A stretch of DNA of 64,000 bases from positions 2,013,620-2,077,619 of the forward strand of contig OY759352.1 of NCBI GenBank assembly GCA_963662305.1, given 5' to 3'. Source of the DNA: Desulfarculia bacterium (lineage in GTDB: Bacteria; Desulfobacterota; Desulfarculia; G963662305). Positions 4,052-8,120 of the stretch are shown one piece after another. The translations under genes were made by a program, and so were the position numbers. Positions within the stretch are counted from its first letter, which is position 1, and every line of letters begins with the position of its first letter. The notes under the pieces were generated by a model, which worked only from the letters and a program-made list of their open reading frames with translations, was not told the origin of the DNA and ran no database searches.

Positions 4052-6901
4052 TCACCCCTTAATTTCGTCATTAAAATATTGGATTGCCCTCTTAGTTTCC
4101 AAATCCTCTACATGAATTATATTTCTAATTCTATCTGCTGCTCTTTCAGCTCTAAGGCGCCCCAACCCATAAATTGCCCTCACTCTAATTATGTTGCTAA
4201 AATCGTCTAAGCACTCTATCAACCCTCCAATCGCAGTCTCACCACCTAACTCAGACAATGCGTATACAACTCTCTCGCGGATGTCCTCGTCTGGATGATA
4301 AACAAATTTTATTAACTCTTCGGCACTAGAAGGTTCACCTATGTTTTGTAAGGCAACAATTACGTTACATAAGCTTAGCCCAGAAAATTCATTGAGACAT
4401 TTGTGCAATGCCTGAACAGCAGAAGCCTGTTTCATATTTCCCAATGCAGATATCGCTGCGTCCCTTGCATCCTGACTCTCGTCATTATCTATAAAGTCAA
4501 TCAAAAGGTTAACAACTTCATCGCTATCAAAATATGAAAGCCTCTCTATGGCTTTTATTTTTGTCGAAGTGTTGCCGTCAACCAGACTTTCTATTAAGTT
4601 ATTTCTTGAAACAGTAGCCTCCTGCCTTTGCAATGCTATAAAAGCAGCCTCCCTTACGTTTGATGCGGTATCATTCAAAAGCGTGCTAAGCGCTGACTCA
4701 ACATTTTTGGAGGCAATTTTCCCAACACAATAACATGCGGACTCCCTGACATAACTGATGCTATCAGACAATCCCTCTATATAAACGTTTATATATTTCT
4801 CATCAACGTGCTCGCCTAAAACCTCGAAAACAGATTCTCTAACAAAAGAATTAGGATCATCCGAGCATTTTGATATAGCGTCAACAGTAGAGGAGTCTCC
4901 AAAGAAACCTAAAGCGATAATCGCTCTCTTTCTTAATCTAGCATCAGAATGGTTAAGCATTCCGATCAATAATTCTCTAGCCTCAGAGGTTTTGCTTTTC
5001 CCAAGCAGTGAAATACCCTGAAGCTTAACTAAAACCTCTTCATCCTCAAGAGCCAAGCGTCCATAATCAAATAGTTGCTTTGGCTGAAAACAATAGACCA
5101 TGCCCGCATAAACAGCAGATCTAATCAATACTTCCGGATCAGATGTTAGCTTATGCAAAATTGTTGAGATTTCTTCTGGAAAAAAATTGAGAGAATATTT
5201 TAGAAATCCCCACCTAATGTTCACTCGTACATTAATATCAGATATCAATTTAAATATATGCTTTTTTATTTTGGAAGGCATAGACTCTTTAACCAAGCTA
5301 TAAATGTCAGCATCGAATAAATTTTTGTCAATAGAACCTTTCTTAAAATAGTCGTATAAGTATTCAAACGATTCTAAACTATTGTGAATCAAAAACATAA
5401 ATACTTCAGCTTTCTTTAAGTACTTTCTATTGTGCTCCAACAAATGCTTAATGAAGATATTTGCAATTTTATCGAAGGGTATGTTCTTAAAGCGTCTAAT
5501 GATATCCCTGTTTTCACTTCTCGACCCACATTCTTTTAGACTGAGTGCAAGAAAAATAGTCTCTACTACGGTTAACTCAATCTCATTTATCCAGGGTTCA
5601 ACAACTTCCAATCGATCCTTTCCCATAAAAATGTCGTAACGCACCCACTGTGTAACACCTTCAGCGACCAAGTCATGAACACCTTGAATGCGGTCAGCGG
5701 CAAGGTATCTACTCTTTACAATTTCAATCATTGCATCATGACATAACATATATGCTGACTTTTTAACCGGGAGAACAAGTTTTACACCAATTAGAGAATC
5801 TATCAACTCATTAACATATCCCTGGTCATACCCCTCTAATTGGCTCACCAAGTCTGATAAATTTACACATCTGGTTGTTCCTTTTGTACCGCACAAAAAT
5901 TTTAGAACCTTCAAAAGTTCCCCTCTCTGGTAAGCGGGAAAAGCTACCAGCTTTTTATCTAAAAAGCTTCCATATATACCATCAACTCTCCCTAATCTTT
6001 CATAGGCATCAAATCCAGTGATTTCTTTGCCTACAATCTCATCAAAAACAGCGCTGCAAACAAGTTGTAATTCTAATGGATTTACTTCTCTATTTATACT
6101 CAAGTCTCTAAAAATATGTGTCCTTAATTTTTCATCGAAAATAATCCCGCTTTTTTTTGAGCAATATTCGAAAAGGTCATTACACGCATCGTGACTAATT
6201 CCTGTTAGACTAAATATTTCACTGAATAATCTTGGTAAGTTTTTCAAAAATCCTACCAGCTTATAGAGATATGTATCCCTAACACTTAAAATAACATTTA
6301 CTTTAAAAATTGATTGATATGCTAAAAGGCACAATGAAAATAATATTTTATCAAAACTATTTATATTAGGTGAATCAATTATGTTTTCCACTTGGTCATA
6401 AATAAATATAACATTACTTTCTATCTGATAGCCTTCAAAAAGCCTGTAAATATTTGTGTCAAACAATTGCTTATCTTCATTTGAAAGTTTCAAATCTACA
6501 GAAACGGTATTAATTGTTTGATTTATATCAACTTTCTTTGATGACAAAATATCGCCAACACTCTGTTCGTGTGTACCATTTTCAGCATAGCTTTTTCGTT
6601 TAACTCCACTAACTTCAACACTTGATTTTATTGATTCAACTAAGATATCAACTGTTTGTCCAGGAAGGGCTTCCTCATATATAACTACGCTGCCGTTCTC
6701 AACTAAATATGGACACAGACAGGCTTTAAAAAAAGAAGACTTCCCAACACCAAGAGGTCCAGAAAAAATTTGAACACTGTTTTCAGAATCATCTAAATGA
6801 CTACAGAAGGACTTCAAATCTTCATTTCGGCCAACACATAACCATGAGTTAGCAGATGAAATCGTACGAAAGGGAGAAAACGGATTGCTCTTATTGCTCA
6901 C
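4052..6901 (-). CDS. Large P-loop NTPase (STAND/NACHT-like) with C-terminal HEAT/PBS-lyase-type repeats
   Basis: 949 aa; Walker A GPLGVGKSS near residue 50, Walker B-like IFIYDQVE; C-terminal ~300 aa of repeated ~30-aa units (VRESxxxxLG, NVREAAFIAL, DIRERVVYAL, IIRVRAIYGL) typical of HEAT-like repeats; only ~40 aa precede the P-loop. Confidence 0.7.
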   Translation of the reverse strand: MSNKSNPFSPFRTISSANSWLCVGRNEDLKSFCSHLDDSENSVQIFSGPLGVGKSSFFKACLCPYLVENGSVVIYEEALPGQTVDILVESIKSSVEVSGVKRKSYAENGTHEQSVGDILSSKKVDINQTINTVSVDLKLSNEDKQLFDTNIYRLFEGYQIESNVIFIYDQVENIIDSPNINSFDKILFSLCLLAYQSIFKVNVILSVRDTYLYKLVGFLKNLPRLFSEIFSLTGISHDACNDLFEYCSKKSGIIFDEKLRTHIFRDLSINREVNPLELQLVCSAVFDEIVGKEITGFDAYERLGRVDGIYGSFLDKKLVAFPAYQRGELLKVLKFLCGTKGTTRCVNLSDLVSQLEGYDQGYVNELIDSLIGVKLVLPVKKSAYMLCHDAMIEIVKSRYLAADRIQGVHDLVAEGVTQWVRYDIFMGKDRLEVVEPWINEIELTVVETIFLALSLKECGSRSENRDIIRRFKNIPFDKIANIFIKHLLEHNRKYLKKAEVFMFLIHNSLESFEYLYDYFKKGSIDKNLFDADIYSLVKESMPSKIKKHIFKLISDINVRVNIRWGFLKYSLNFFPEEISTILHKLTSDPEVLIRSAVYAGMVYCFQPKQLFDYGRLALEDEEVLVKLQGISLLGKSKTSEARELLIGMLNHSDARLRKRAIIALGFFGDSSTVDAISKCSDDPNSFVRESVFEVLGEHVDEKYINVYIEGLSDSISYVRESACYCVGKIASKNVESALSTLLNDTASNVREAAFIALQRQEATVSRNNLIESLVDGNTSTKIKAIERLSYFDSDEVVNLLIDFIDNDESQDARDAAISALGNMKQASAVQALHKCLNEFSGLSLCNVIVALQNIGEPSSAEELIKFVYHPDEDIRERVVYALSELGGETAIGGLIECLDDFSNIIRVRAIYGLGRLRAERAADRIRNIIHVEDLETKRAIQYFNDEIKG

Positions 6902-8120
6902 AGAAGTACCTATTTATTTGATCTAGAGCTGAATACACAGATTCTTTCCCAATTTGTCCAGCTACCGCTTTTTCATTCAAAAGAGCTATATTCAGGAACA
7001 ATTCTAAACCTTTCTCTTGAAGTATTCGTGGTATTAGGCCACCAAGGTCGTTCACATTTTCTGGAATTGACTCTAATTCTGGCCTGAATTTTAATGCTAA
7101 CCTAAATACTTCCATCACACCATCAGTTATACATTTTTGATTAATTAAATCACTTGATATCTCTTTGAGAATTGGTTCAATTGGACTTGTGTTCACATTG
7201 CCAAAACTTTTTGTATTTGCACCATATAAATAAACCTCTCCATCAGGTCTTATTCCCAAATTCATACCACCACCATACACACAAGGCCATAGAGAACCGT
7301 ATGCTTCTTTGGCCACATCGACACCTCCAGAAAAATCCATATATTTAGTATTTGCCACTCTTATATGTGTATCTAAAACAAGAGTTTTCCTTGTTACTAA
7401 AATTACTTCACCACCATTTAAAATCAATTTCTCTTGAAAGTTGCTAAGCTTGACCAAACGGCCATTCAATAACTTACTCAAATCGGACACGGACCTGTCA
7501 TTTGACAACAATGATCTTATTTCTATTTTTATTGGGAAATTTTGATTTTTGTTTTTGTATTTTACAAACCTCTTTATCGCTGCACATATATTAAGTAATG
7601 GAATTTTTTTTGAATGAAAGTCGTCAACACTCAACCTTAAAACGAATCTGCTTAAATATTTTGCTTTTTTTACTGAATCTACTATCGTCTTGAAAAACAG
7701 ATCGAACTCGTCTTTTGCTACTGACCAATGACCTGAAGTAGCCAAAACGATACTTTTGCAAGTGGAATTATTAACAATAAAATTAACCATATCCATATTA
7801 AGTGTTGGCTCTCCACCACCGGTTAAAAATAGTTCTTCAATATTCTTCCTTTTTACAAAGTCAAGACAGTGATTGATAGCTTTAAAACCAAGGCTTTTTG
7901 CGTTTTTTGAATTCTTACTATTGCTAATTGAATACTTACAGTGAGAACAGTTAACATTGCATAGATTTGTCAATTCAATGGTAAGTCTATATAAATTAAA
8001 AACATTATGGAATTTACTCATTACGTGGCCATAGAAGAATTCAGTTGCCCCCTTTATGTCACCAACTGAGTTGACAGTTTCTTTTATAAGACTGAGTTGT
8101 ATATTGAATTTGCTACACAT
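6891..8120 (-). CDS. Radical SAM protein (no SPASM/twitch domain evident)
   Basis: 409 aa; CxxxCxxC cluster motif CNVNCSHC followed by glycine-rich SAM motif LTGGGEPTL; AGGA 6 nt upstream of ATG at 8120; first gene of the island operon. Confidence 0.75.
   Translation of the reverse strand: MCSKFNIQLSLIKETVNSVGDIKGATEFFYGHVMSKFHNVFNLYRLTIELTNLCNVNCSHCKYSISNSKNSKNAKSLGFKAINHCLDFVKRKNIEELFLTGGGEPTLNMDMVNFIVNNSTCKSIVLATSGHWSVAKDEFDLFFKTIVDSVKKAKYLSRFVLRLSVDDFHSKKIPLLNICAAIKRFVKYKNKNQNFPIKIEIRSLLSNDRSVSDLSKLLNGRLVKLSNFQEKLILNGGEVILVTRKTLVLDTHIRVANTKYMDFSGGVDVAKEAYGSLWPCVYGGGMNLGIRPDGEVYLYGANTKSFGNVNTSPIEPILKEISSDLINQKCITDGVMEVFRLALKFRPELESIPENVNDLGGLIPRILQEKGLELFLNIALLNEKAVAGQIGKESVYSALDQINRYFCEQ

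Follow-up and report, generated by a model that had tools for sequence, protein, structure and literature searches.

A radical SAM enzyme with the fold of EpeE/YydG in a recurring STAND NTPase gene cassette, a probable bacterial conflict system

Analysis of a 64,000-nucleotide stretch of DNA from a Desulfarculia bacterium (contig OY759352.1, positions 2,013,620 to 2,077,619; hereafter the window, whose numbering is used throughout unless another locus is named) reveals that the radical S-adenosylmethionine (SAM) enzyme encoded at 6891-8120 has, in its core and its C-terminal domain alike, the fold of the peptide epimerase EpeE/YydG, and that its gene leads a cassette that recurs in other genomes. 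The core of this cassette comprises the radical SAM enzyme, a small protein with two transmembrane helices, a nucleoside triphosphatase (NTPase) of the nSTAND1 type with HEAT repeats and a TehB-like methyltransferase. The small protein and the STAND NTPase share a 17-amino-acid motif. The cassette, with four to five genes centered on an NLR-like STAND ATPase, is probably a bacterial system of conflict or anti-phage defense that has not been described before. The features of the enzyme gene are these:

6891-8120, minus strand: radical SAM enzyme, lead gene of the cassette (ATG start, 409 amino acids; EpeE/YydG fold without the auxiliary cluster)
7938-7961, minus strand: CxxxCxxC cluster motif, C54-N-V-N-C58-S-H-C61 (the sole invariant cysteines in a 50-sequence alignment)
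7806-7820, minus strand: GGGEP (GGE) SAM-binding motif, residues 101-105 (invariant or nearly so in family and clade alignments)
7218-7289, minus strand: remnant of the EpeE T-SPASM loop, W278-P-C-V-Y-G-G-G-M-N287-L-G-I-R-P-D-G-E-V-Y-L-Y299-G300-A301 (hidden Markov model (HMM) alignment to YydG SEQRES 229-299)

An earlier note, made from the sequence before any database search, had read this gene as a radical SAM enzyme with CxxxCxxC and GGE motifs and no cysteine-rich SPASM/twitch C terminus. Both points stand. The two motifs and a partial TIM-barrel core place the protein in the radical SAM superfamily, and of its ten cysteines (residues 2, 54, 58, 61, 85, 121, 179, 280, 330 and 407) only C54, C58 and C61 are invariant among the 50 aligned family members, which argues that there is no SPASM/twitch cysteine cluster; indeed, the cysteine-rich motif of such C termini is absent from the window enzyme. 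The gene was also correctly placed at the head of the island operon and in tight coupling to the NTPase. The downstream STAND gene overlaps it by 11 nucleotides (GTGAGCAATAA), and the GTG start assumed for that gene is supported by an N-terminal NPFxPF motif common to homologous STAND proteins. In addition, the association of radical SAM, STAND and methyltransferase genes recurs in eight independent loci, so that the description of the enzyme as stand-alone has to be given up: its gene is an obligate member of a cassette.

Curated libraries return sub-threshold matches to the radical SAM N-terminal core alone. Pfam Radical_SAM gives 23.5 bits against a gathering score of 29.5, and the best NCBIfam match gives 41 bits against a cut-off of 380, with no family above 41 bits; the NCBIfam search matched 61 families, and statements on absent families rest on the best 25 of these 61. 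A word-seeded homologue search of 5.8 billion proteins led to three relatives. An exhaustive profile search raised the number of cluster representatives to 460 at E ≤ 1e-3 and gave 21 at E ≤ 1e-30, the majority being aligned along their whole length. The enzyme is thus one of a sizeable, uncurated family, defined by the C-terminal 250 residues that no curated family covers and numbering, by these profile matches, no fewer than 460 cluster representatives. A family profile built from 50 sequences matched EpeE/YydG (PDB 8AI1) with an E value of 2.9e-22, with the next match at 4.5e-7 and viperin at about 8e-3, and the commonest NCBIfam match across the family was TIGR04078 (28 of 50 members). An AlphaFold model computed from the 50-sequence alignment is confident (pLDDT 88.4) and replaced an unusable AlphaFold 2 model from a 4-sequence alignment (pLDDT 51). 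With this model, Foldseek retrieved EpeE at E 1e-11 (TM score 0.63-0.72), the next match being at 1e-6. When the model was compared with known structures, 284 of the 316 EpeE residues were aligned and EpeE was clearly ahead of SuiB (16.7), ChlB (15.3), MoaA (15.1), BlsE (15.0) and viperin (14.9). The overall fold of EpeE, C-terminal domain included, is present in the window enzyme, and we regard its identity and fold as practically certain. The residues after the core, some 250 in number and described in the earlier note as resembling no family, are the T-SPASM scaffold of EpeE/YydG without its cysteines, and the nearest characterized relative of the enzyme is this peptide epimerase, not viperin.

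The window enzyme nonetheless differs from EpeE/YydG of B. subtilis (PDB 8AI1-8AI6; TIGR04078) in several respects. The two are 16-18% identical, and TIGR04078 scores the window enzyme at 36.3 bits against a cut-off of 300, over residues 46-190 only. In EpeE, C223 is the hydrogen-atom donor and the auxiliary cluster lies in the T-SPASM domain (PMC13012085). The numbering of the PDB construct is offset by 25 from that of native EpeE, such that the radical SAM cysteines SEQRES 39/43/46 are native C14/C18/C21. The auxiliary [4Fe-4S] cluster has no counterpart in the window enzyme, where VYGGG...YLYGA is aligned to LHCPG...YPCC of YydG; C222 and C223 (SEQRES 247/248) correspond to G300 and A301, and D210 (SEQRES 235), the residue mutated in PDB entry 8AI6, corresponds to an invariant asparagine, N287. 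Because C222-C223 is replaced by G300-A301 and D210 by N287, and no auxiliary-cluster cysteine is left, the window enzyme is not an EpeE-type epimerase. It also carries an extra N-terminal segment of ~45 amino acids and a C-terminal helical extension, and its genetic setting is another one, since the cassette has a STAND NTPase and methyltransferases as partners and no EpeX-like precursor, protease or ABC exporter. At the site of the lost cluster, a CxxCxGCxG...C insert is still present in P0003 and P0004, two distant relatives, and this suggests that the auxiliary cluster was lost secondarily in this family; a phmmer search of the PDB with P0003, aimed at the YydG 204-229 segment, gave no match. 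These two relatives (23-26% identity) were rejected as cassette members, as they lie in clusters with several radical SAM, NUDIX and PEP-utilizer genes.

The three partners of the enzyme in the window are encoded downstream of it on the same strand:

4052-6901, minus strand: nSTAND1 NTPase with C-terminal PBS-lyase-type HEAT repeats, 949 amino acids, GTG start (PF20703, 53.9 bits; HEAT_2, 1e-42)
6734-6760, minus strand: Walker A motif of the STAND protein (GPLGVGKSS), in nSTAND1
6386-6412, minus strand: Walker B motif of the STAND protein (IFIYDQVE), in nSTAND1
About 4082-5053, minus strand: HEAT region of the STAND protein (HEAT_2)
3418-4047, minus strand: TehB-like class I SAM methyltransferase, probably 209 amino acids from M9 (Pfam TehB, 6e-23)
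3895-3924, minus strand: SAM motif LDLGAGEGKN within the TehB-like gene
2984-3406, minus strand: small membrane protein, probably 140 amino acids from M15 (homologues of 172-178 amino acids in L008, L010, L012, L013 and L061)
3164-3235 and 3077-3145, minus strand: two transmembrane helices of the small protein, forming a C-terminal hydrophobic hairpin

The NTPase is a genuine nSTAND1 protein: it scores 53.9 bits against a gathering score of 27.1, has both Walker motifs and is homologous over its full length to the STAND proteins of L010 and L012 (E 1e-55). Pfam detects in it no N-terminal effector domain and no helix-turn-helix or other output domain, and since the N-terminal effector is missing, any effectors would act in trans. 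The methyltransferase matches TehB in the PDB (4dq0) at 2.6e-15 and the mad2 methyltransferase domain of PADLOC at 1e-19, and shares 46-52% identity with its counterparts in L001, L010 and L012. Its longest open reading frame (ORF) would begin at 4071, and a 98%-identical protein, P0157, is called at 209 amino acids. The longest ORF of the small protein would likewise begin at 3448, with the 140-residue call made for P0228 on a near-identical ENA contig. The small protein has one layout in all cassettes, with two repeats at the N terminus, a middle part that varies and, at the C terminus, a hydrophobic hairpin, which in the window consists of two clear transmembrane helices. A profile search with it found seven clusters only, none of them fused to another domain, and the family is confined to the cassette.

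The radical SAM enzyme and the TehB-like methyltransferase occur together in eight independent loci. An nSTAND1-HEAT NTPase accompanies them in seven of the eight and the small two-helix protein in at least six. The loci outside the window are arranged as follows, with lengths in amino acids:

P0005 locus (radical SAM enzyme 37% identical): radical SAM enzyme, nSTAND1/HEAT (957), TehB methyltransferase (209), 119-residue protein, CHAT, HNH
L010/L011: radical SAM enzyme, 173-residue protein, nSTAND1/HEAT (956), TehB methyltransferase
L012: methyltransferase-like protein, radical SAM enzyme, 178-residue protein, nSTAND1/HEAT (949), TehB methyltransferase
L008/L009: starts as in L012 and ends at the contig edge
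L013: radical SAM enzyme, 172-residue protein, nSTAND1/HEAT (951), TehB methyltransferase, methyltransferase-like protein
L061: radical SAM enzyme, 172-residue protein, nSTAND1/HEAT (945), AbiEii-like protein (weak, E 3e-3), TehB methyltransferase
L001, a variant: unrelated NB-ARC/TPR STAND, TehB methyltransferase, radical SAM enzyme, UbiE-like methyltransferase

The genes abut or overlap and thus form one operon. In all-against-all BLASTP of comparable cassettes, the STAND proteins are 23-25% identical over ~950 amino acids (E 1e-55), the methyltransferases 46-52% and the radical SAM enzymes 27-38%. To the core genes are added variable extras, namely a second methyltransferase-like protein, an AbiEii-like nucleotidyltransferase, a TIM barrel or a nearby caspase or CHAT gene. 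We are highly confident that the cassette is conserved. It is also horizontally mobile; in L013 it is flanked by genes for a type IV secretion system coupling protein and an integrase-like protein and by IS66. A scan of genome contigs had as its sole find a weak core match in Streptomyces (L004), and a scan of metagenomes found a single locus, L013. The 47 loci returned by a scan of viral contigs were set aside, as they match the generic radical SAM core only (residues ~38-130), and the P0016 contig was left aside for its shortness.

Individual loci show further peculiarities. The second, divergent methyltransferase-like protein is found in one cassette subclade (L012 4276-5154, L008 3-752 and L013 13131-13820), where it stands before the radical SAM gene or after the TehB gene and is 30-33% identical between copies. 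In the metagenome contigs L005 (11314-11706) and L007 (1865-2257) the STAND protein that follows P0005 stops at 130 amino acids, at the position of the motif, and is possibly an inactivated allele; in L006 the contig ends before the stop point is reached, and another contig with an identical radical SAM enzyme has a 957-residue STAND protein. L001 is surrounded by AbiEii, His_Phos_1 and caspase genes. The N-terminal coiled-coil of its NB-ARC/TPR STAND (4499-6718) resembles the C-terminal tail of a Peptidase_C14 caspase (11729-12775; 36% over 47 amino acids, E 1e-5), and because of this resemblance, which looks like an effector-associated-domain pairing, the L001 STAND may partner the caspase rather than the radical SAM and methyltransferase pair. 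A lanthipeptide synthetase and a MacB transporter are encoded near L010.

The STAND NTPase and the small protein are further connected by the motif Q-x-[IV]-G-x-[IV]-x-x-S-x-x-[IV]-x-[IV]-x-Q, of which the small protein has two copies and each cassette STAND one. In the window the copies are located as follows:

6518-6565, minus strand: STAND motif copy QSVGDILSSKKVDINQ, residues 113-128, in the insert between Walker A and Walker B
3341-3388 and 3272-3319, minus strand: the two N-terminal motif repeats of the small protein

The STAND copy lies in an insert of ~50 amino acids; wherever the DNA extends to this region, which is so for six cassette STAND proteins, the insert can be aligned and is conserved. 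An HMM made from the N termini of the small proteins only matches the cassette STAND proteins (2.9e-5 for L012, 8.4e-4 for the window). The reciprocal HMM, made from the six STAND inserts only, detects five small-protein families out of six, with E values of 2e-9 to 4e-3, and misses that of L013; its search space was 13,324 six-frame ORFs with 1.03 M residues, in which the best unrelated match was at 0.42. A strict regular expression for the motif gave 12 matches, all in cassette proteins. Over 18 copies, Q2 and Q17 are present in 18/18, S10 in 16/18 and G5 in 15/18, and the truncated STAND of the P0005 type (L005/L007) has no clear motif. As judged from these alignments and searches, the motif is very probably shared between the two proteins, and this sharing is a new observation. 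A short motif common to an NLR and to an adjacent effector gene is what characterizes amyloid-signaling pairs, and reciprocal HMM and regular expression both find one here. The placement usual in those pairs, at the N terminus of the NLR and the C terminus of the effector and within a described motif family, was not found, nor does any cassette protein have a Pfam match to the HET-s, RHIM or sigma motifs.

What we have established is gene content, homologies and the shared motif, and the functional steps proposed here are deduced from them. We consider it fairly likely that the cassette is an NLR-type conflict system, probably one of anti-phage defense or abortive infection, and we give about an even chance to the fuller explanation that we prefer, an NLR-type conflict cassette with SAM-dependent chemistry. 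The STAND protein, having no effector domain, would sense a trigger through its HEAT repeats and oligomerize on NTP binding. Its motif loops, clustered in this way, might draw in the motif repeats of the small protein or act as a template for them, after which the transmembrane hairpin of that protein would damage the membrane, following by analogy the logic of the HET-S/NWD2, BASS/Bell and Bab/Agp pairs. The radical SAM enzyme and the methyltransferase or methyltransferases would supply a second, SAM-dependent effector activity in trans or, alternatively, license the relay; in this predicted role, the suggestion that the radical SAM enzyme provides the chemistry of the module is retained. Defense-type genes (AbiEii, caspase, CHAT and HNH) neighbor other cassettes. 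Several points weigh against this explanation. The functions of all cassette proteins are predictions from sequence. No neighboring phage-defense genes were identified in the window itself, in which PADLOC recognizes no system. The cassette is rare: its radical SAM enzymes come down to about a dozen representatives when clustered at 50% identity, and its methyltransferases to ~36 clusters at 90%. Moreover, the motif is C-terminal in the effector and N-terminal in the NLR of amyloid pairs, whereas in the cassette it occupies the N terminus of the effector and, within the NTPase, an internal loop, and the likeness is one of motif layout alone, with amyloid or beta-templating behavior being putative.

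With regard to the substrate of the two enzymes, we lean toward a nucleotide-like product over a modified motif because of the fusions and neighbors in the wider radical SAM family, the TehB-like nature of the methyltransferase and the conservation of L001. Full-length family members are fused to a uracil phosphoribosyltransferase (UPRTase)/phosphoribosyltransferase (P0021), to His_Phos_1 and a second radical SAM domain (P0011), to a carbamoyltransferase and a second radical SAM domain (P0027) and to YhcH (P0041), a core-only match, P0040, carries a bona fide dCTP deaminase domain (115.7 bits against a cut-off of 92.8), and another wider-family member adjoins amidohydrolase and PHP genes. Fusions of this kind are the closest relatives that the cassette clade has outside the cassette. 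TehB-type methyltransferases have small-molecule substrates. L001 keeps a radical SAM enzyme and a methyltransferase with all clade-invariant residues, although its STAND lacks the motif and the small protein is absent. That the two enzymes carry out radical modification and methylation of a nucleotide-like small molecule, with the logic of viperin and not its ancestry, is a tentative conclusion to which we give somewhat less than an even chance; we favor it over motif modification, with nucleic-acid modification and other possibilities sharing the remainder. On the other side of the balance, the nucleotide-enzyme fusions occur in distant family members, and in one of these, the dCTP deaminase fusion, the radical SAM match covers the core only. 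A peptide is the substrate of the nearest characterized enzyme, and most of the structural neighbors that come next are maturases (SuiB, ChlB, PqqE, CteB and SkfB) of ribosomally synthesized and posttranslationally modified peptides (RiPPs). The kinship with EpeE/YydG, by far the closest relative in sequence and structure and the source of the commonest NCBIfam match (TIGR04078), speaks for a RiPP-like licensing, in which the radical SAM enzyme and the methyltransferase or methyltransferases would modify the 17-residue motif in the small protein and perhaps in the STAND loop, by epimerization or another C-H functionalization at Ile, Val or Ser and by methylation of the invariant Gln, Asn or Asp, thereby arming or gating the membrane effector. 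Proteusins provide an analogy, as in these a radical SAM epimerase and a methyltransferase modify a peptide that later acts on membranes. Also in line with such licensing, the gene for the motif protein directly follows the radical SAM gene on its 3′ side in five loci (L008, L010, L012, L013 and L061), the strictly invariant positions in the 18 motif copies are as one would see in an enzyme recognition site, and the small-protein family is restricted to the cassette and free of fusions. We nevertheless judge it unlikely, as the family lacks the auxiliary cluster, the Cys223 donor (Gly/Ala) and D210 (Asn) of EpeE; as no motif-bearing protein is encoded in the 18.8 kb of L001, where the radical SAM enzyme and methyltransferase are fully conserved; as the truncated P0005-type STAND of L005/L007 has no clear motif; as the wider family is associated with nucleotide or sugar enzymes; and as no RiPP recognition element (RRE) domain, protease or exporter is present. 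Somewhat more doubtful still is an enzymatically licensed relay from NLR to membrane, in which the enzymes would edit the Q...S...Q beta-motif of the STAND loop, the small protein or both, through formation of a D-residue or methylation of Gln or Asn, and STAND oligomers could template the edited motif and trigger membrane attack.

The other rivals assign the cassette to different substrates or pathways altogether. Modification of DNA or RNA by the radical SAM enzyme and methyltransferase, as a self-mark or a toxic lesion, with the STAND protein, the EndoIV-like TIM barrel and HNH as executors, would account for the AP_endonuc_2/nfo-like TIM barrel at the end of the window operon, for the HNH gene of the P0005 locus and for the match of the methyltransferase to the mad2 domain. 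That match, however, covers the generic class I methyltransferase fold only, and the methyltransferase is closest to the small-molecule TehB enzymes; the TIM barrel and HNH genes are not conserved between cassettes, no nucleic-acid-binding domain was found in the radical SAM enzyme, methyltransferase or STAND protein, and no RlmN, Cfr or MiaB-type family is among the best 25 NCBIfam matches. We therefore deem nucleic-acid modification improbable. More improbable again is a cluster for a secreted natural product, an epipeptide-like RiPP or a small molecule, in which the STAND protein would merely regulate and no conflict with mobile elements would be involved. The resemblance to EpeE, the multi-radical SAM, biosynthetic-looking clusters in which P0003 and P0004 lie, and the lanthipeptide synthetase and MacB genes near L010 would fit such a cluster. 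But the STAND protein has no helix-turn-helix or other output domain, the cassettes have no exporter, protease or immunity gene as a conserved companion, they lie on mobile elements beside AbiEii, caspase and CHAT genes, and the motif shared by the STAND and small proteins would be left without a role. Least credible of all, and effectively refuted by the family membership tests, is that the gene encodes a true member of the viperin (pVip) family, the earlier note having raised viperin-like nucleotide modification as a possibility, or a housekeeping radical SAM enzyme (MoaA, QueE, HemW, RlmN/Cfr) displaced onto the island. In its favor are weak matches of the N-terminal core, to pVip models in PADLOC (generic core; PDLC02903, 23 bits), the viperin/pVip family NF038283 (26 bits against a cut-off of 180), MoaA (34.8 bits against 284) and QueE (27.6 bits against 260). 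These scores are 5-10 times under the curated cut-offs and cover residues ~40-130 only, the C-terminal NTP-binding extension typical of viperins is missing, HemW, RlmN, Cfr and MiaB-type families are absent from the best 25 of the 61 families matched, and the context is a mobile STAND cassette on a low-GC island, not a cofactor or tRNA pathway. A confident match to a housekeeping subfamily whose genomic context is conserved elsewhere had been named beforehand as the result that would overturn the reading of the earlier note; the profile search against radical SAM subfamilies found none.

Further observations concern the wider radical SAM family. The EpeE-like radical SAM domain is fused to a B12-binding radical SAM enzyme in P0024 and also occurs inside proteins of 2,900-6,600 amino acids. 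In L065/L066 (7332-10794), the radical SAM gene P0018 is followed by genes for an APH-type kinase and a NUDIX hydrolase, with a divergent cytidylyltransferase-like gene; from the families present, this set is a pathway of nucleotide or sugar-phosphate style. A distant family member (21% identity, 90% coverage, E 5e-9 in tblastn of plasmids) is encoded on two enterobacterial plasmids, in L067 (Raoultella plasmid NZ_CP114775, 4187-11897) and L068 (Citrobacter plasmid NZ_CP056645). It belongs there to a conserved block of seven genes, for a WYL regulator, a Ubiq_cyt_C_chap-like protein, a 528-residue membrane protein, the radical SAM enzyme, a PHP "histidinol-phosphatase" and two hypothetical proteins. 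The block adjoins a DUF262 pair or AbpA and looks like a separate candidate defense system.

The operon of the window lies inside a segment of 33-39% GC (~690-8700) in a genome of ~65% GC. The other genes of this island and its flank are:

9049-10242, plus strand: tyrosine recombinase/integrase flanking the island (Pfam Phage_integrase, 2e-34; GC step)
2058-2987, minus strand: xylose-isomerase-like TIM barrel (AP_endonuc_2 fold), 309 amino acids (PF01261, 8.7e-14; weak nfo match)
850-1635, minus strand: orphan ORF of 261 amino acids at the low-GC end of the island (no family match; single-member cluster)

The TIM-barrel gene overlaps the small-protein gene by 4 nucleotides, indicating translational coupling; with its weak similarity to endonuclease IV and its absence from the other cassettes, it is an accessory specific to the window. 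The orphan ORF is 420 nucleotides from the operon, and its membership of the cassette is uncertain. No tRNA gene and no att direct repeats were found at the island borders, no Rfam family was found in positions 1-12000 of the window, and scans for promoters and terminators were not above shuffled expectation. Elsewhere in the window are two CobN-type cobaltochelatase genes and a chelatase D/I fusion (18143-33012), a corrinoid-type ABC ATPase (10891-12546), a TonB-dependent receptor (38982-41153) and an HdrA-like gene (58575-61409). Because of the HdrA-like, CobN and TonB-receptor genes, an anaerobic, corrinoid-handling diderm host is suggested, where an enzyme sensitive to oxygen would be able to function.

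In bacterial STAND/NLR systems, the NTPase and its effector are normally parts of one polypeptide. The cassette contrasts with this in pairing an effector-less STAND protein with three conserved partners in trans, the radical SAM enzyme, the methyltransferase and the membrane protein. The literature that we searched contains no paper joining nSTAND1 with radical SAM and no description of a cassette of STAND, radical SAM and TehB. If functional, the cassette would add radical SAM/SAM chemistry to NLR-type immunity, define a large, uncurated family of EpeE-like, cluster-less radical SAM enzymes and offer a tractable four-gene model for the unexplained radical SAM accessories of STAND operons, such as Avap1. 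Other members of the family, with their dCTP deaminase, UPRTase and phosphatase fusions and their place in enterobacterial plasmid defense islands, may be functional analogues of viperin. Should the licensed relay prove true, it would be the first case of radical SAM posttranslational chemistry controlling an amyloid-like immune signaling motif, and a clue to why radical SAM genes such as Avap1 accompany some bacterial NLRs. We know of no amyloid-signaling system that includes radical SAM or methyltransferase genes.

Comparison with known systems reveals partial likenesses. Prokaryotic pVip and eukaryotic viperin are likewise radical SAM enzymes of defense islands, and the nucleotide-enzyme fusions and neighbors of the wider family keep a viperin-like, modified-nucleotide product plausible for the window enzyme. 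Among the nSTAND1 conflict systems (Kaur/Aravind; PF20703), the cassette NTPase is a bona fide nSTAND1 protein with a repeat-type sensor, but the systems described there have fused effectors or effector-associated domains, unlike the cassette. NLR/effector pairs with common amyloid motifs that are doubled on the effector side have been described (10.1101/2020.01.06.895854, 10.1101/2024.11.07.622273). As in the cassette, the adjacent genes of HET-S/NWD2, BASS/Bell and Bab/Agp encode a STAND protein and a small membrane-targeting protein that share a motif of ~17-20 amino acids, and the two effector copies against one NTPase copy in the cassette resemble HET-S r1/r2 against NWD2 r0 and the "double BASS" pairs, although the cassette effector is a transmembrane hairpin and not a Bell or HeLo domain. 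Defense against some phages by the KpAvs2 operon requires its radical SAM accessory, Avap1, and pVip-type nucleotides went undetected there (PMC11564622). Unlike the cassette STAND, Avs2 has a nuclease effector of its own at the N terminus, its sensor domain is of another kind, and its other partner is DUF6375, which no cassette protein matches, rather than a methyltransferase or transmembrane protein; Avap1 and the window enzyme are likened by operon make-up, not by sequence. Nevertheless, KpAvs2-Avap1-Avap2 joins, as the cassette does, a STAND/NLR-like anti-phage protein in one operon with a radical SAM enzyme of unexplained chemistry (PMC11564622), and it is the nearest precedent for the cassette.

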